Positions 40,404 through 59,363 are shown, counted from the stretch's first letter. The stretch is DNA of 64,000 nucleotides from Candidatus Latescibacterota bacterium (GCA_965248435.1 OZ252100.1:256001-320000); one strand, 5' to 3'. The notes: generated from the sequence alone by a model not told the origin. Made by a program: numbers and translations.

Positions 40404-41050
40404 TCATGAAACCCTGGCGGTCATGAGCCCCCACAGCCAGTTGATTTTATACTTCTCAACGTGGATGTTCCTAAAATTGGCCGCCCTCAGAAGGTGTTCG
40501 AGCTCTCTTCTGCGATAGGTTTTGAAATGGGCCGCGTCGACGATCTTCAGAAACAGATCGCATACGCGGCAGGACAGGTAATCGTCGCACCAGTCCGTGA
40601 TCACGACTCTGCCTGTGGGCTTCAAGACCCTGATGATTTCGTTCAGACAGGTCTCCGGTTTCCGCCAGTAATGAAATGTATTGCAGGAAACAACGACATC
40701 GAAGCTTTGGGAGCGGAGCGGAAGGACCTGAGCCTGACCGGCAAGAAATTGGGCACGATTGCCCGATTTTTTACAAGCTACGCGCAGCATTTCACTGCTG
40801 ATGTCGACTCCCACCAAGCCGATAGAAGGATACTTGGCCAGGATAGCCTGGAACAGCGTGGCAGTTCCACACCCGATATCCAGTAGCCTATCAGAGTTTG
40901 TAAGTCCAATCGTTTTAGTGTCTCGCCGAGTGTCGCCTGAATGTAATATGACCAGCGCCGGTCATAACGAGATGCGACCCGGTCGTACTCACGCCTGATC
41001 GCGTCCTCGCTGTTTGATATGCGAACCATTTGCTTCTCGCCTGGCGCCAC
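40404..41050 (-). CDS. Class I SAM methyltransferase, 1-nt frameshift at 40897-40899
   Basis: Adding one A joins YDRRW..LDLQ to NSDRLLDIGCGT..VGVDIS..FDVVVS..RVLKPTG. Confidence 0.82.
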
Positions 41051-41165: not shown

Positions 41166-41539
41166 GGTCCCCTCAGGCTCGAGCTGCATCGCAAACCACC
41201 TGTGGAGCGCGGTATGACGGCCGTAACGACTGACCAGGAGGTGAAGCAAAGGGCTGGAGCAATCCAGACGTAACCCTTGAGACTCTCAGGCAGGAGTTTC
41301 CGGAAGGATTAGATCAAAAGGACGTGTTGAGAAGATAGAGATGCGGCGAGCGAGGGAGGGAATACTGTCTGAGATGGAATGGCCACGATGAGCAGGAAAG
41401 TGAGGGATTTTTTGACCAAAGTGATCGATCTTTCCGAGGTTTAAGGGTAAAGAACCGCGCAATATCTTAAAACTTACTCATCTCGTGCAATGGAGTCAAT
41501 CTCATGCTTCGGATACCAGTCCGGGAGAGAAAAATACAG

Positions 41540-41917
41540 CTATGTTTCGAGCCAGCGGACAACAGGCAGGAGTCCATACGCGATAAATGCACCCGTCATG
41601 TAGATCACAAGCGACGCCCAGAACAGTAACTTTGTAAAGCGGCCTGCCACCTCACAACCCTTACCTCCTGTGATCGAACAGGCCATTCTACCATGAGGTC
41701 GGAGAGTCAGTATACCGCTTAAAAAGATGAGCAATCCGGCTGTGGGAAATAGCCAACCTTTGTTGCGGGAAAGGGGGATGAGCCAGGGAAGCGTCGTGAG
41801 GAGTGTTCCCAAGGCAGCGCCCCCGGCCACGCCCGCAATGGCAGCCGGCAGGGCACAGCACAGGAGCGTGCCTGTCGAAGTAAACAGCCCGAGAAGGTTG
41901 GCCACCTGCTGTTTCAT
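41540..41917 (-). CDS. MerT/MerC-like membrane metal transporter
   Basis: LLCCALPA in the first TM, loop C-x7-C, 3-4 TMs. Confidence 0.8.
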   Translation of the reverse strand: MKQQVANLLGLFTSTGTLLCCALPAAIAGVAGGAALGTLLTTLPWLIPLSRNKGWLFPTAGLLIFLSGILTLRPHGRMACSITGGKGCEVAGRFTKLLFWASLVIYMTGAFIAYGLLPVVRWLET

Positions 41918-41929
41918 TTCACGGTGCCT

Positions 41930-42207
41930 CTACAAAAACCTTGGCAGCCACATACCGATGGTGAGGCCGGTGGCCCCCCATACGATCCGTCGCGCCCAGA
42001 GACTCCTCAGTCCCCTGCAATGCATCAGATAATGCGCACGTCCCAAGAATAGATAGTGAGCCCAAGCAGAAAGGGTATCCACTGACTTGCTGCCACCCGG
42101 GCAGCGCTTGAGCCTGCCAGTCCCATCAGGGCCAGTATGGCAGGGAGCGCTCAGCACCAGGGCGTACCGACCAACACGGCTGTTAGAGTTGATGCTTTCT
42201 CTTTCAA
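41930..42207 (-). CDS. Candidate selenocysteine-containing MerT-like protein (UGA 42151-42153; probable 1-nt indel ~42045-42056)
   Basis: GGAG RBS and TTG start; MKEKASTLTAVLVGTPWC-U-ALPAILALMG..; hairpin directly 3' of the UGA; C-terminal TM (FLGRAHY..RRIVWGATGLTIGMWLP) in an adjacent frame. Confidence 0.65.
42103..42150 (-). promoter_or_regulatory. Putative bacterial SECIS hairpin
   Basis: After the UGA: GCGCU/AGCGC and CCUGCCA/UGGCAGG stems, apical CCC-UGAU-GGG with the loop 22 nt from the UGA. Confidence 0.5.
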
Positions 42208-42225
42208 CTCTTGGTTCTCCCGAAA

Positions 42226-42747
42226 TTAAAGGACCTGAAACCGCTCCACCGAGAGGATAAAGGGATGTCCCGAGTGCCCTTCCGTTTTCTTCCGGACGAT
42301 CTTTCCAGAGAGGCGGACGCGCTTATCTTCTCCTTTTAGCTTCTGCCAAACCTTCTGGAGTTGATCGTTTGATTCAACAAGAAAGAGATCCCCGCTGTCT
42401 GGAATGGTCACCACGGTCAACCCCTTTTTCTCCGAAAGACGACCCGTCACGGTAAGTGATATCTCTCTAGGTGTATAACCGCCATCCCTTACGGCCTTTT
42501 CTATTCCCTCTACTGACAAGGTCTCTTTCTTCCTTGCCGTCACCTTCGCGGTCCCCTCGTCTACCAAGATCTCCAGCTTTTCTACGCCTTTCAGGCCCTT
42601 AAGCTTTTTCTCCAGACCATAGGCGCAGAACGCACAAGCAAGACCGTCCAGTTTGATGCCCACCTCTTCAACTTGAGCGAAGGCGACCACTGACTTCGAT
42701 ACGAAGACGACTGCCAACATTCCGAGGGTCAGATTCCGTTTACGCAT
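42226..42747 (-). CDS. Periplasmic HMA-domain protein with C-terminal extension
   Basis: Signal peptide; DGLACAFC..LEKKL; AVRDGGY. Confidence 0.85.
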   Translation of the reverse strand: MRKRNLTLGMLAVVFVSKSVVAFAQVEEVGIKLDGLACAFCAYGLEKKLKGLKGVEKLEILVDEGTAKVTARKKETLSVEGIEKAVRDGGYTPREISLTVTGRLSEKKGLTVVTIPDSGDLFLVESNDQLQKVWQKLKGEDKRVRLSGKIVRKKTEGHSGHPFILSVERFQVL

Positions 42748-42783
42748 TGAAAACTCCTCCATTTAAGGAAGCCCGTTTCATCA

Positions 42784-43641
42784 TCAAAACAGCAAGACCC
42801 GAATACCAACACTCAAGGTCCAATCCGGTTCCAGCTGAGTGCCATTAAGGTCCTTCAGCAGAGGAAGCTGTACCGAAGCCTCCGCGAGCAGGCGGCTAAG
42901 GGGTATATATTGAAGTCCGGGTGAGAGAAAAAGCACGTGGCCTCCCGAGTGAGGAGCGAACCGACCGCTGTCCTTATCCTTCTGTGTCCAGGCGCCGTTG
43001 AGATCCAGGTAGGCATTCACCTGCTGCGCCGGGTAAGTCCTGTAGACTCTCGGCGCCATCCGGAATGCCAGCGCGAGATTGTAGGCCAGGCCGTTGCCGT
43101 ATTCCAGGCTGTTCGCCTTGCCCCTAGCCATATAGAGCGCATCTGCATACACCCCAACCCGATCCCTGAGCCATGCAGTCACGAATCCAAAAGAGAAATC
43201 GGTCGAGCCGCTGCCGAGGGATGGCGCTTCCTGGTCATCTCCGGTGGGAAGTTTCAGGACGACCTTCGGCGCAAGACGGAAAGTCTCCCTGGGGCGGTCT
43301 ACCTGAAGAATCACGTATTTGGCGAAGAGCAACACATCGCCGAGACCCGAAGATGAGAGCTTCATTCCGCCCCTCTTCATCTCCTTGAAGACTGTCGGGA
43401 TGACGATTCCTACCACCCCATGCGTGGTTATGTTGTAAGGAATCGCTACCGGCCAGATGGTGGTGGTTAGCCGTTGGTCCAAACGCGTATTGGAAAGACG
43501 GACGACCCTGATGAATGTCCGAATCCCTCGTCCCTCGAGTCCCAGTGTAATCGGCGTATCGGTGTGGATCGGTGGACCCTGGGCCCCGCAGAAGGTTGGC
43601 ATCAGACCCAGGAAGATGGCCAGAGTCGATGCAATCCGCAT
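42784..43641 (-). CDS. Outer-membrane beta-barrel transporter (MetA-pathway/phenol-degradation family-like)
   Basis: Signal peptide, SGLGD, KLPTG, LGSGSTD, LSPGLQY, terminal Phe. Confidence 0.75.
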   Translation of the reverse strand: MRIASTLAIFLGLMPTFCGAQGPPIHTDTPITLGLEGRGIRTFIRVVRLSNTRLDQRLTTTIWPVAIPYNITTHGVVGIVIPTVFKEMKRGGMKLSSSGLGDVLLFAKYVILQVDRPRETFRLAPKVVLKLPTGDDQEAPSLGSGSTDFSFGFVTAWLRDRVGVYADALYMARGKANSLEYGNGLAYNLALAFRMAPRVYRTYPAQQVNAYLDLNGAWTQKDKDSGRFAPHSGGHVLFLSPGLQYIPLSRLLAEASVQLPLLKDLNGTQLEPDWTLSVGIRVLLF

Positions 43642-43652
43642 GGCCAGGGTTC

Positions 43653-44150
43653 TCAAATCTGCCTCTGCGCAATCCTCACCCGACGAAGCTGCGTCTTGGC
43701 ATGTTTTACCGTTCGTCCCACATTCCCGAGGCAGCAGGTCCCCTCCGGGTTCTTGATCTCGCACTCACAGTTTCCAGCCTTTATCTCAGATCTGATCATC
43801 TCGGGGATTCTGGTCTCACCTGTCCCTGCGATCTCGTCGTAAATCATTTTCTCTGAATGGTCGAAACAATAGCAGAGCGGGATCGGATCTTCAGTCTCCT
43901 TGAGACCCACGCGGACTTTCAAATCGGTCTTCAGGAATGATTGAGATCGTTCCTCCGAATAATAGACGACATTGCACGTCAGTGTCCTGCAAAAGTAGTA
44001 TTGACGACACTGAATATCAGCGACCCGCAGACTGAGAAGAAGATGTTCCAGAGTTACGCGGTCTACTGGCCTCCCAACCTGTTCGCAGGCGGGGCAGTTC
44101 GGACGGGCACCCCCGGAATCCAAGTTCCTGTCTTTGCAGCACCCTATCAT
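43653..44150 (-). CDS. CopZ N-terminal-like Zn/[2Fe-2S] Cys-rich protein
   Basis: CPAC, YYFC...C.VVYY, CYCF, C.C..KNP.G.CCLGNV. Confidence 0.82.
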   Translation of the reverse strand: MIGCCKDRNLDSGGARPNCPACEQVGRPVDRVTLEHLLLSLRVADIQCRQYYFCRTLTCNVVYYSEERSQSFLKTDLKVRVGLKETEDPIPLCYCFDHSEKMIYDEIAGTGETRIPEMIRSEIKAGNCECEIKNPEGTCCLGNVGRTVKHAKTQLRRVRIAQRQI

Positions 44151-44153
44151 GCG

Positions 44154-44489
44154 CTAACCCGCACTCGGCTTACGAGCAGTAAACCCTGTGCTGTTGATTG
44201 CCTGGATCATCTGCTCCAGGGTCACCTTCCCTTCAGTATAAGTGATGACGGCTTCGCCGTTTTCCACATCCACCTTGGCACGCCGGATCCCATCCAGTTT
44301 GTTGAGGGCCATCTTCACGCTGACCGCACAAGCACCACAGGTCATTCCCTCCACGGGGAGGGTAAGTTGCTCGGCCGGTATGGACTCGGCCGTCGCCATG
44401 AACTCCGGACGATTATCGGACCTGTTGGACAGCAGGAGAAAGGCCGAGATCGCCACCACTATCACCAGAACGACGCCGATGGTTTTCAT
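44154..44489 (-). CDS. merP: MerP-like periplasmic metal-binding protein
   Basis: Signal/TM plus GMTCGAC; follows merT. Confidence 0.8.
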   Translation of the reverse strand: MKTIGVVLVIVVAISAFLLLSNRSDNRPEFMATAESIPAEQLTLPVEGMTCGACAVSVKMALNKLDGIRRAKVDVENGEAVITYTEGKVTLEQMIQAINSTGFTARKPSAG

Positions 44490-44563
44490 TTCCGATGCCT
44501 CCTATGTAAGTCCTGCAACAAACTGTGAATCAATGAATTACATCCTATTATAAATGCACATGG

Positions 44564-44902
44564 TTAAGCGATCAGCGGCAGCAGGTAGGGGGCGGCCACC
44601 AACACCAGGGCCACGGCAGTGGCGATCCAGAGCAAGACCATGTACCGCTGTGCCCTCTCATTTGTTGGGCAGACATCTCCCTCTTCGCACTTCTGCTTTC
44701 GCCCGTAGGTGAGATAGAAAGCAGCTCCGAGAAAGAGGAACGTCACCCCCAGGAAGTATGGACGATAGGCTTCCATGCCTGCCGCCGCACCCAGGCCGCC
44801 GATCCCCAGCACAACGGCCAGAACCGGGCCGATGCAGCAGAGAGAGGCGACAAAGGCAGCCAGGACCGATCCGATCTGTGGGACCCACGTCTTCATTTGC
44901 AA
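44564..44902 (-). CDS. merT: Mercuric transport protein
   Basis: ASLCCIGP, YRPYF, loop CEEGDVC, LLWIA. Confidence 0.88.
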   Translation of the reverse strand: MQMKTWVPQIGSVLAAFVASLCCIGPVLAVVLGIGGLGAAAGMEAYRPYFLGVTFLFLGAAFYLTYGRKQKCEEGDVCPTNERAQRYMVLLWIATAVALVLVAAPYLLPLIA

Positions 44903-45318
44903 CCGTTACGTCGTTTCACGGGCTGCTCCATCGCCTCCAGAATCGGACAATCGCCCCTTGGGCCGCGACCCCTGCAGGAAGCTACCAATTTTGTGAGTGC
45001 CCTTTTCATGCCTTGCAGGGCACGAATCTTCTCTTCGGTTTCTTCAAGCTTCGCCTCCGCGCGTTTCTTGACATCCCCACAGGTCGTATCCGGGTCCACC
45101 CGAAGACTCAGGAGTTCAGAAATCTCGTCGAGCGAGAATCCCAGCGTCTGTGCGTGCTTGATAAATTGCATGCGTGTAACGGCGTCTCCGCCATACTGTC
45201 TGTACCCGGACGCGCGCCTGACGGGTCTCGGGAGGAGGCCCCGCCGTTCATAATACCGGACGGTTTCGACGTTTACCCCCGCCCTTCTGGCGAACTGACC
45301 TACCGATAAGGTTTCCAT
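44893..45318 (-). CDS. merR: Hg(II)-type MerR regulator
   Basis: VNVETVRYYERRGLL HTH; Cys triad TCGDV / SCRGRGPRGDCPIL. Confidence 0.88.
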   Translation of the reverse strand: METLSVGQFARRAGVNVETVRYYERRGLLPRPVRRASGYRQYGGDAVTRMQFIKHAQTLGFSLDEISELLSLRVDPDTTCGDVKKRAEAKLEETEEKIRALQGMKRALTKLVASCRGRGPRGDCPILEAMEQPVKRRNGCK

Positions 45319-45331
45319 TTTAACCTCGATC

Positions 45332-45739
45332 CTAATCCGAAAGTTCGACGCATTCCTGGGCAAGCTTCGTGTATTTGCCCCACACCTTTTCGGGCAGATA
45401 GTTCAAAATGATGGCTCCGACCAACATCGTCATGCCGATCCAACGCCAAGCCTGTAGACCAAAAGGCAGGATGTCAAATCCGTGCAGCAACGAGGCCGCG
45501 CTTCCGAGAAGAAAGAACGGACCTGTGAGGTGGCAGTGTACCCGACCACACCGAAAGGCGTTTGCCAGACAGGCCACGCCCATCTCGGCAAAGCAAGCCG
45601 TCCAGACGATGGTTCTGATCATCAGATGATCCAGGAAAGCCGTCACCACGATGGCAACAATGGGGATTCCCCAAACCAGGGCTGATGTCAGGCCGCTGTT
45701 GGCCCAATCCTTTCGGTCGGTTGGACAGATATCGTGCAT
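45332..45739 (-). CDS. Cys/His-rich membrane protein, first gene of the MerR operon
   Basis: About 4 TMs with ACLANAFRCGRVHCHLTGPFFL. Confidence 0.72.
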   Translation of the reverse strand: MHDICPTDRKDWANSGLTSALVWGIPIVAIVVTAFLDHLMIRTIVWTACFAEMGVACLANAFRCGRVHCHLTGPFFLLGSAASLLHGFDILPFGLQAWRWIGMTMLVGAIILNYLPEKVWGKYTKLAQECVELSD

Positions 45740-57881: not shown

Positions 57882-59363
57882 CTAGAGCTGCCGTCGGTAA
57901 AGCCAGCCGAAGACCGATTTGGCCCTGGGTGTCAATCGCGTCCTGCTGTACTGGTCGCCCACCTTTCGAGCCAACTCGGCAAACGTCGGATAAGCGTGCA
58001 CCGTCGATGCAATATCACGCAACCCAGCCCCAATCTTCATGGCCAGGACAAACTCGTGAAGAAGATCCCCCGCGTGTTCGGAAACGATCGTCGCGCCAAG
58101 GATCTTGTCCCCACCCTTTTCCGTCAACACCTTCGCGAACCCGGCCTCCTCCCGCTCCACGATCGCGCGGTCCATCTCCCCGATCTCCTGGGTATACAGG
58201 TCGTACTTGATACCATTCTCCTCTGCCTCGGTCTCATTCAGTCCGACGCGTGCCACTTCTGGCGAGGTGTAGGTGCACCAGGGGACGACGGAATAGTCCA
58301 CCTTCTGGCGCAGAAGTTTAAACGGCATCAGGATGTTTCTCACGATCACCCGGGCCTGGTGATCGGCCATGTGGGTAAACTGATAGGGCCCGACGATGTC
58401 CCCGCAGGCGTAGATGTGGCTCTGGGAGGTCTGGAGATAATCGTTCACACGGATGCCGCCTTTGTCGTGCGCCACCCCAGCAGCCTCCAGCCCGAGATTC
58501 TCCACGTTGGGAATGCGTCCCGCGGCGATCAACAGGGCCTGCGTCTCAAGGGAGTGGATATCCTCGTTCCCGGCCCTCGGATTCATACGCTGCAGGTCCA
58601 GATGCAGCGTTCCGTTGAGCCGTTTCGCGCCCTTTGCCGCCGTTCCGGTGTGGATCCGGATGCCCTCAGATTCCAGACGCTCCTGGATGAAGGCGCCCAC
58701 ATCAGGATCCTCTTTCACCATGATTTGTGGCAGAAATTCGACGACCGTCACCTTTATGCCTAAACGACACATCACCTGACTCAGCTCGAGCCCGATCGGC
58801 CCACCCCCAATCACCACCATCTCCTCGGGCTTTTCGTTCAGCTCGTCAAAGACGGTCTCGTTCGTATAATATGGCACCTCGTCTATGCCATCGATCGGCG
58901 GAATCCCTGCGCGACGGCCCGTCGCGATCACAAAATGGCTGGCGCGAAGCACCGTTCCATCGTCGATGGCCACTTCGTTTGGGGAGAGAAACCGAGCCTC
59001 CCCCCGAAACACGTCGACGCCAAGCCCCTCGAAGCGTTCCTGCGAGTCGTTTGGCTCGATCTTGGCCCGCCTCTCCCGCATCCGTTCGAATACCTTCCTG
59101 AATTCGAACTTCGGTTCCTGAGCCTCCAGCCCCCATTCTTCTGCCCGACGCATCTGGTCGATGACCCGTCCCGCCGAGATCAGGGCCTTGCTCGGTACGC
59201 ATCCATAGTTGAGACAGTCGCCGCCCATCTTCTTGCGCTCGATCAGGGCGACACGGCCTCCCAGGCCGGTCGTACCTGCTGCGGTCACGAGGCCGGCGGT
59301 ACCGGCACCGATGACTACGGCGTTGTAAACACCCTCCCCTTTTCTATCGCCCAAGGCTGGCAC
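57882..59363 (-). CDS. Flavin disulfide reductase (MerA/LpdA-like, TVP38-associated type)
   Basis: GAGTAG, GGDCLNYGCVPSK, GGGPIG, HAYPT; no HMA domain and no C-terminal Cys-Cys. Confidence 0.9.
   Translation of the reverse strand: MPALGDRKGEGVYNAVVIGAGTAGLVTAAGTTGLGGRVALIERKKMGGDCLNYGCVPSKALISAGRVIDQMRRAEEWGLEAQEPKFEFRKVFERMRERRAKIEPNDSQERFEGLGVDVFRGEARFLSPNEVAIDDGTVLRASHFVIATGRRAGIPPIDGIDEVPYYTNETVFDELNEKPEEMVVIGGGPIGLELSQVMCRLGIKVTVVEFLPQIMVKEDPDVGAFIQERLESEGIRIHTGTAAKGAKRLNGTLHLDLQRMNPRAGNEDIHSLETQALLIAAGRIPNVENLGLEAAGVAHDKGGIRVNDYLQTSQSHIYACGDIVGPYQFTHMADHQARVIVRNILMPFKLLRQKVDYSVVPWCTYTSPEVARVGLNETEAEENGIKYDLYTQEIGEMDRAIVEREEAGFAKVLTEKGGDKILGATIVSEHAGDLLHEFVLAMKIGAGLRDIASTVHAYPTFAELARKVGDQYSRTRLTPRAKSVFGWLYRRQL

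Follow-up and report, generated by a model that had tools for sequence, protein, structure and literature searches.

A frameshifted and most likely inactive allele of a gene for a predicted MerT-like Cys-Sec metal-transfer protein in a Candidatus Latescibacterota genome

Within a 64,000-nucleotide stretch of the genome of a Candidatus Latescibacterota bacterium (GCA_965248435.1 OZ252100.1:256001-320000; hereafter the window), the minus strand between positions 42207 and 41930 carries what is probably a frameshifted, most likely inactive allele of a gene for a MerT-like metal-transfer protein of about 92 residues with a Cys-Sec pair. Comparison of homologous sequences gives us high confidence that the 92-aa family to which this allele belongs is decoded with selenocysteine (Sec). 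Intact members would carry a vicinal P-W-C-C motif in their first helix, with UGA in place of the second or both Cys codons in part of the family, and SelB and tRNA-Sec would read the UGA as Sec with the aid of a hairpin located in the coding sequence just downstream. In the window genome, one T of codon 52 would have been lost and translation would stop at 60 residues, short of the conserved second half, while a near-identical strain appears still to hold an intact, TGA-containing gene.

The gene opens at a TTG (42207-42205, minus strand) preceded, with a spacing of 9 nt, by a Shine-Dalgarno-like GGGAG (42217..42221, minus strand); both elements had been placed here by a preliminary description of this DNA made from the sequence alone, and both are present. 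The TTG is in register with the GTG or ATG starts of the orthologues and begins a frame that reads MKEK...PWC up to an in-frame TGA (42151..42153, minus strand; codon 19, the proposed Sec codon) and then continues with ALPAILALMGLAG. As translated from the minus strand, this frame A is MKEKASTLTAVLVGTPWC, TGA 42153-42151, ALPAILALMGLAGSSAARVAASQWIPFLLGLTI..., with a further TGA at 42027-42025 as its terminator. Its homologous part, 51 whole codons and two bases of codon 52 (42053..42207, minus strand), comprises the first helix with the PW-C-U motif and matches positions 2-52 of a profile of the family (E 1.2e-12, one TGA inside). The remainder lies in frame B, offset by -1 (41930..42052, minus strand), which reads ...FLGRAHYLMH...WLPRFL (...FLGRAHYLMHCRGLRSLWARRIVWGATGLTIGMWLPRFL), ends at a TAG at 41932-41930 as the tail of a 75-aa ORF and matches positions 52-91 of the same profile (E 2.9e-11). 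One base is missing at the junction (42052..42053) relative to all intact homologues and to the near-identical strain; the preliminary description had supposed that one extra base near 42045-42056 would give a protein of about 92 residues, which proved right, the base being placed between 42053 and 42052. The listing of ORFs under table 11 holds only a 75-aa and a 33-aa fragment at this place and the ORF track therefore misses the gene, which bears out the proposal of a MerT-like gene hidden beside an HMA gene. The UGA was likewise correctly assigned to the codon of the second vicinal Cys, as it matches the second Cys of PWCC in the homologues.

A 60-aa query taken from frame A matched two of 61 related genomes, the window's own (G000) and G054, and the family profile matched six of the 168 genomes of the phylum. 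Strong full-family matches, each with one TGA, came from G000, G054, G069 and G070, that of G000 in two pieces and the other three full-length; the weaker matches, to which the window's own merT belongs, are merT-like genes of the ordinary sort. Neither search found a copy in G001, a genome of the same genus. The orthologue in G054 (L026) is an intact 92-aa gene, GTG-KEKTSSLTALFTALPWC-TGA-VVPAAFALLGLAG...LLLGRAHYLIH...LWLPRLL, with its TGA at codon 19 and no frameshift, and those of G069 (L052) and G070 (L053) encode 91 aa, MK(T/I)K(A/S)SSLMALLAAL(P/S)WC-TGA-IVPAIFALLGLAG..., behind an HMA gene. Scanning of metagenomes produced 43 pattern matches, from which 22 loci were confirmed: ten are PWCC (L030, L032, L033, L035-L040, L046), four PWCU (L027, L028, L029, L031), five PWUU with two adjacent TGA codons (L034, L041-L044) and two VPN-U (L045, L047), and one is a C-terminal fragment (L048). 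A scan of genome contigs with a narrower alignment (A2) added two loci, L049, a 99% copy of the L026 protein, and L050, which was dropped as a family member on account of its chance-like match of 31 residues. A hit resembling NF045683 with a TGA, elsewhere in the window's genome (L072), proved to encode a plain HMA lipoprotein, with the TGA falling outside its gene.

At the second position of PW-C(C/U), TGA is thus found in 13 distinct homologous sequences and TGC or TGT in the others. The orthologues are 91-92 aa long, free of any shift and open save for the TGA, and the protein is conserved on both flanks of this codon; in the window, the reading frame breaks 33 codons past the TGA owing to the missing base. 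The alternation of TGA with Cys codons among homologues and their conservation in frame past the UGA, which the preliminary description had proposed as a check, were both found (13 TGA sequences; 10 PWCC loci), and it is this recurrence of TGA at the same codon of 13 distinct homologues, together with flanks conserved as protein, that raises the Cys-Sec locus above chance. Over the 15 codons upstream of the pair, the 55 pairs that can be drawn from 11 Sec forms differ at codon positions 1, 2 and 3 in 307, 248 and 484 instances; the pairs being related, these counts are an indication rather than a test that the stretch evolves as coding sequence.

When protein databases were searched with the L026 protein, 20 of 307 candidates passed E<=1e-3. 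Thirteen of these carry WCC, and the other seven are entries of 69-73 aa whose first residue lies 1 to 7 residues past the pair. An exhaustive HMMER search with the intact orthologue found 84 representative proteins at E<=1e-3, 24 of them at E<=1e-10 and none at E<=1e-30. Among 102 database proteins, 59 have WCC, six another xCC, 19 begin just past the pair and 18 are shorter or odd; the 19 that start past the pair look as expected of mis-called Sec forms.

The forms with other pairs deserve a separate description. Five distinct homologues, L034, L041, L042, L043 and L044, read FALPW-U-U-LLPG at the site of PWCC in the Cys forms, with one conserved hairpin 19 nt past the second TGA; in L044, a duplication of 11 codons shifts the best copy of the hairpin further downstream. 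L045 and L047, which form a branch of the family, read TVPN-U-TAA, where Asn replaces the first Cys and only the second position is TGA; the hairpin again follows at a distance of 19 nt. Reassignment of TGA in the contigs that carry UU or NU forms (code 4 or 25) is unlikely, as judged by a rough check: these contigs have a G+C content of 0.51-0.57, and under table 11 TGA closes their long frames.

The genome of the window is equipped for Sec decoding. G000 encodes selA, selB, a Sec-type selD with one in-frame TGA and tRNA-Sec in one cluster (C1:1062487-1067069), so that all four components that the preliminary description had named for checking are present; the tRNA scores 74.3 bits (cut-off 47) and is typed by ARAGORN as SeC with anticodon tca. 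G054, G069 and G070 each have selA above cut-off and a tRNA-Sec of 70-72 bits.

By the criterion of bSECISearch, a bacterial SECIS element is a stem-loop shortly 3' of the UGA with a G early in its apical loop. Directly 3' of the UGA, the window has a stem-loop (42104..42150, minus strand) composed of a lower stem GCGCU/AGCGC, a 7-bp stem CCUGCCA (42144-42138)/UGGCAGG (42119-42113), an inner CCC/GGG and an apical loop UGAU (42128-42125) located 22 nt past the UGA. The SECIS-like hairpin of the preliminary description is present as described and is the minimum-energy fold (-24.4 kcal/mol); taken alone, it is no better than chance (z = -0.42), 59 of 200 shuffles folding equally well. A search of 41800-42400 against Rfam at E<=10 gave chance-level matches only. 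The selD of G000 has, past its own UGA, a 7-bp stem with the loop GGU.

A hairpin conserved among the Sec forms was found when the 66 nt that run from the first C/U codon were compared between 13 distinct Sec forms (alignment A3, which excludes L027, L028 and L049 because they duplicate L026 over this stretch) and six distinct Cys forms (alignment A4, without L037-L040, copies of L035). Most Sec forms have CCCUGCU-CGGGUU-AGCAGGG, starting 19 nt past the UGA, and eight of the 13 have all seven pairs. Over the corresponding alignment columns (26-32/39-45), 89.0% of 91 cells are paired in the 13 Sec forms against 52.4% of 42 cells in the six Cys forms, and moving the partner by 1-3 columns as a control leaves the Sec forms with 34-65% pairing. 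No pair of this family-wide hairpin changed on both sides in A3, and its support is therefore sequence conservation, synonymous sites included, and not covariation. Two Cys forms are instructive: L032 encodes FSLLGLAG as the UU forms do, but with codons that do not pair, and L030 forms six of the seven pairs. In the window, the position of the family-wide hairpin is 42112..42131 (minus strand), and here as well as in L026 and L031 it is weaker, with 5, 6 and 3 of the 7 pairs, respectively. These three sequences have in common a perfect 7-bp stem in columns 13-19/38-44 (CCUGCCA/UGGCAGG in the window), one pair of which is U-A in the window, C-G in L026 and G-C in L031 and joins the third base of a Pro codon to that of an Ala codon. 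The 7-bp stem is a case of real covariation, if in these three sequences only.

The state of the window allele was assessed by comparison with contigs assembled from sequencing runs. Contigs built separately from the runs X1 (depth 34.7) and X3 (depth 13.5) are identical to the window from 41500 to 42800, in pieces of 39.6 kb; the two runs represent a single sample from which the assembly was probably made, and are therefore no independent test of the missing base. X5, a 251-nt contig of depth 2 that represents a near-identical strain from another study, covers 41975-42224 and differs from the window by three substitutions and one extra base behind 42052, differences that at such a depth may be errors. 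On the coding strand, the extra base turns ATC TAT TCT TGG into ATT CTA TTC TTG GGA (I-L-F-L-G), which restores the 92-aa frame and brings G56-R57-A58-H59-Y60 into the register of the orthologues; because it restores both frame and register at the sole place where a base is needed, we regard it as very unlikely to be an error in spite of the low depth. The substitutions are all nonsynonymous (V11M, G14A and C64R, from window to X5), and the Ala of X5 at residue 14 is the usual residue of the family. At the two sites that the preliminary description had singled out for inspection, the outcome was as follows: the TGA at 42153-42151 is unchanged in X1, X3 and X5, none of which has TGC or TGT at 42151, and at 42045-42056 X1 and X3 are one base short like the window and X5 has the extra base. 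None of the three observations that the preliminary description had named as telling against a selenoprotein was made, since the Sec machinery is present, the TGA forms and the hairpin are conserved and the contigs keep the TGA.

As it lacks this base, the window copy cannot make the 92-aa protein, and the operon most likely holds an inactivated allele; we are fairly confident that the copy is inactive. The working Cys-Sec transporter that had been envisaged beside Cys-Cys paralogues in one operon is accordingly most likely not what the window offers. Tree building gave the window protein an end branch of 0.71, longer than any other in its group (median 0.33). A second frameshift lies about 1 kb away, in a class I SAM methyltransferase gene (40404-41050, minus strand) that is split in two frames, its N-terminal part ending near ...LKRLDLQ and the LLDIGCGTA... 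part standing in the other frame. The long branch and the split methyltransferase together look like recent decay of part of the island in the window strain. Alternatively, the gene might be intact and functional in the window organism and the missing base an error of sequencing or assembly. In favour of this, no shift is present in any of the 12 other Sec-form sequences or of the Cys forms, the extra base does occur in the near-identical strain, a short run of T at the site may have led to TT being read as T, and the neighbouring split gene could itself betray indel errors. Against this, the exact agreement of the separately built X1 and X3 contigs points to accurate reads and a true deletion, and their origin in one sample means that a systematic error is countered only in part; on balance we hold an error to be unlikely.

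Other explanations deny the gene its Sec codon or its existence altogether. If the locus were a plain nonsense pseudogene of a Cys-Cys gene, its TGA would be a recent mutation of TGC or TGT and never have been read as Sec, and the frameshift, the long end branch and the change of amino acid in three out of three differences from the X5 allele are all what a gene under decay would display. Such a history is very improbable given that three other genomes, with their intact orthologues, and four PWCU loci have TGA at the same codon, as five PWUU and two PNU loci have at the homologous position; in addition, the X5 allele is in frame with its TGA kept, the Sec forms share a conserved hairpin and the genome decodes Sec, with a TGA in its own selD. 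It could also be argued that the UGA is the true stop of a tiny upstream ORF and that the real gene begins past it, as the 69-73-aa database entries would have it; the 19 entries that begin just past the pair and the GTG that directly follows the TGA in L026 fit this proposal. We find it just as hard to accept, as the 18 codons 5' of the TGA show homology to the N-terminal end of the Cys forms and change in the manner of coding sequence, the first start codon past the TGA in the window is an ATG at 42126 and does not directly follow it, and the short form would lose the PWC(C/U) site and half of helix 1. That there is no gene here at all, and that frame and hairpin arose by chance in a G+C-rich spacer, is scarcely credible: the window pieces do lack a Pfam or NCBIfam match at curated levels and the window hairpin is not significant alone, but the intact orthologue finds 84 representative proteins (24 at the stricter threshold), synteny with the HMA gene is common to several genomes and both window pieces match the family profile. 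Our preferred reading of the locus remains a frameshifted allele of a Sec-decoded family.

The family is related to MerT. Nineteen of 20 members match NF033560 (merT_RC607) nearly end to end (best E 1e-9), residues 2-88 of P0002, for instance, on positions 1-90 of 97, and five of the 20 match PF02411 (best E 0.0029); the matches to MerTP_fusion, NF045683 and PF02411 are all weaker than that to NF033560. The best score on NF033560 is 38.6 bits against a cut-off of 130, and since scores fall below every curated cut-off the family is MerT-like but lies outside every curated MerT model. Searched with the two window pieces, Pfam returned no family and NCBIfam only MerTP_fusion at E 0.64. Conserved features are P-W-C-C in the first hydrophobic stretch, L-G-R-A-H-Y, R65, G68, W71, R73 and W77. 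MerT of the Tn501/Tn21 type has a second, cytoplasmic Cys pair; no second conserved Cys pair is present in alignments A1 or A5 of the family, which have the G-R-A-H-Y stretch there. MerT of the Bacillus RC607 type (NF033560, 97 positions) is likewise a small membrane protein of similar length with a vicinal Cys pair in the first helix, from which the family differs by its G-R-A-H-Y stretch, its Sec forms and its lack of a second Cys pair. The classical merT of the window (44564-44902, minus strand) stands in the same operon as the Cys-Sec gene and has a vicinal CC in helix 1 (SLCCIGP, as the preliminary description had noted) at a similar spacing from a hydrophobic second helix; unlike the Cys-Sec gene, which has no score on PF02411, it reaches 74.2 bits on this model, and it has a second Cys-rich loop (KCEEGDVC) that the 92-aa family lacks. 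An AlphaFold model of P0002 built from 56 sequences was too weak to place the pair (pLDDT 71, pTM 0.32, with an implausibly long helix 17-64). The source name of seven family proteins that were looked up is 'hypothetical protein' only.

MerT-type proteins with Sec have been described before. In the portion available to us, a survey of selenoproteins mentions MerT-family selenoproteins with a CU motif, with WP_250634603.1 as an example, and names only two transporter families with validated Sec members (Haft 2022, bioRxiv 10.1101/2022.07.06.499078). WP_250634603.1 may or may not belong to the 92-aa family. NCBIfam NF045683, the 'MerT/CopZ fusion-like heavy metal transport selenoprotein', is a model of 235 positions that includes a CopZ/HMA domain. 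So far as these partial descriptions go, the CU proteins of Haft and NF045683 have in common with our family that they are mercury-transporter-like membrane proteins with a Cys-Sec dipeptide; the 92-aa family differs from NF045683 in having no fused domain and scores far below it, P0002 reaching 13.2 bits against a cut-off of 375 and the best E among 20 members being 3.3e-4. No match to NF045683 at E<=1e-25 was found in the 168 phylum genomes, a result that is uninformative as the controls were silent too. A 'putative mercuric transport protein' selenoprotein (PF02411; ABB16073.1) is listed in the parts consulted of PMC9312934 and of PMC13188914 (Table 1); from what is given there, it is, like the 92-aa family, a predicted selenoprotein of MerT kind implicated in heavy-metal handling, and it differs in its motif, C/SxxU in Table 1 of PMC13188914 versus the adjacent CU of our family. 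Among the 119 families tabulated in PMC13188914, as far as the table was accessible, none is a small MerT-like one with CU or UU side by side. A literature search on adjacent or consecutive Sec returned irrelevant papers only. The kind of protein, a MerT-type Cys-Sec selenoprotein, is thus one already known; the 92-aa subfamily stands outside the curated models, and its UU forms may be new. It is conceivable, if slightly on the doubtful side, that these sequences represent an uncatalogued MerT-like selenoprotein family of about 92 aa in which the helix-1 pair occurs as CC, CU, UU and (N)U, the UU forms having two adjacent Sec residues in a membrane helix, with a single hairpin 19-22 nt downstream serving to decode both.

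The genetic context of the window allele is that of a metal operon. All on the minus strand, merR (44893-45363), merT, merP (44154-44489), a CopZ_Nterm_CC gene (43653-44150; NF047645, 129.9 bits) and a gene for a Phenol_MetA_deg-like outer-membrane protein (42784-43764), which together span 42784..45363, are followed by an HMA gene, the Cys-Sec gene and a gene for a 125-aa Cys-Cys protein. The upstream neighbour (42226..42762) encodes a 178-aa HMA-domain protein (Pfam HMA, 1e-7) with a hydrophobic N-terminus and a CAFC site, thus MerP-like, and an HMA gene neighbours the family gene at L026/L049, L029, L052 and L053 as well. The downstream neighbour (41540..41917) encodes a membrane protein of 125 aa that neither Pfam nor NCBIfam matches, in which the motif LLCCALPA that had been reported was confirmed. 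This protein also has a later C..GGKGC and a homologue beside the L026 orthologue (about 2080-2460), and may be another uncatalogued MerT/MerC-like carrier. The CopZ_Nterm_CC protein also matches NF045877 (CopZ_Nterm_CU), below cut-off; given its match to CopZ_Nterm_CC, the operon holds the Cys version of another family with known CU selenoprotein members.

In the textbook model of mercury uptake, MerP hands the metal over to MerT. By analogy, the Cys-Sec pair of an intact transporter would receive Hg(II), or another thiophilic ion like it, from the periplasmic HMA protein encoded upstream. From the pair the ion would move inward, perhaps to the His and Tyr of the GRAHY..H stretch, where helix 2 ends on the cytoplasmic side. 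A selenolate has a low pKa and a high affinity for metals, properties that would favour metal capture. The genome G000 has no merA above cut-off (best score 390.8 versus 454.45), and mercury as the substrate is therefore a guess. A pyridine nucleotide-disulfide oxidoreductase gene located 16 kb from the mer-like operon (57975-59327, minus strand; G000:C1:313975-315327) scores 380.2 bits on the MerA model (cut-off 454.45).

Sec is rare in transporters, and the 92-aa family supplies one small metal-binding site in matched natural Cys-Cys, Cys-Sec and Sec-Sec versions, together with recurring partner genes, so that the value of a selenolate for the capture of soft metals is directly testable on this series. 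Were the family indeed uncatalogued, it would be a natural series for what selenium adds to the hand-off of metal by a transporter. The biological message for the window genome is smaller, because its copy is, on our reading, a recently broken allele. There is also a problem of annotation, in that gene callers shorten genes of this kind to 69-73 aa or miss them.

Partner genes were surveyed around 14 loci by searching Pfam with 41 of 74 flanking ORFs, the family gene, short antisense frames and near-duplicate loci being left out. Stand-alone HMA neighbours were found at L029, L032, L049, L052 and L053, NHL-repeat proteins at L029, L032, L038, L044, L052 and L053, Phenol_MetA_deg-like proteins at L032, L052 and L053, MerR at L032 and L038 and P-type ATPases at L036 and L038. 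Upstream of L026 stand a 175-aa HMA gene and a Phenol_MetA_deg-like outer-membrane gene of the same kind as in the window; between its Cys-Sec gene and its 125-aa gene, this locus has a thioredoxin-like gene with a GCAAC site (1793 to about 2050) that is absent from the window. Natural fusions were encountered among the database proteins: P0023 joins a thioredoxin-like domain to the 92-aa family, and P0040 (365 aa) joins the family to a Phenol_MetA_deg-like domain of outer-membrane type, which is encoded by a separate neighbouring gene in the window (42784-43764), L032, L052 and L053.
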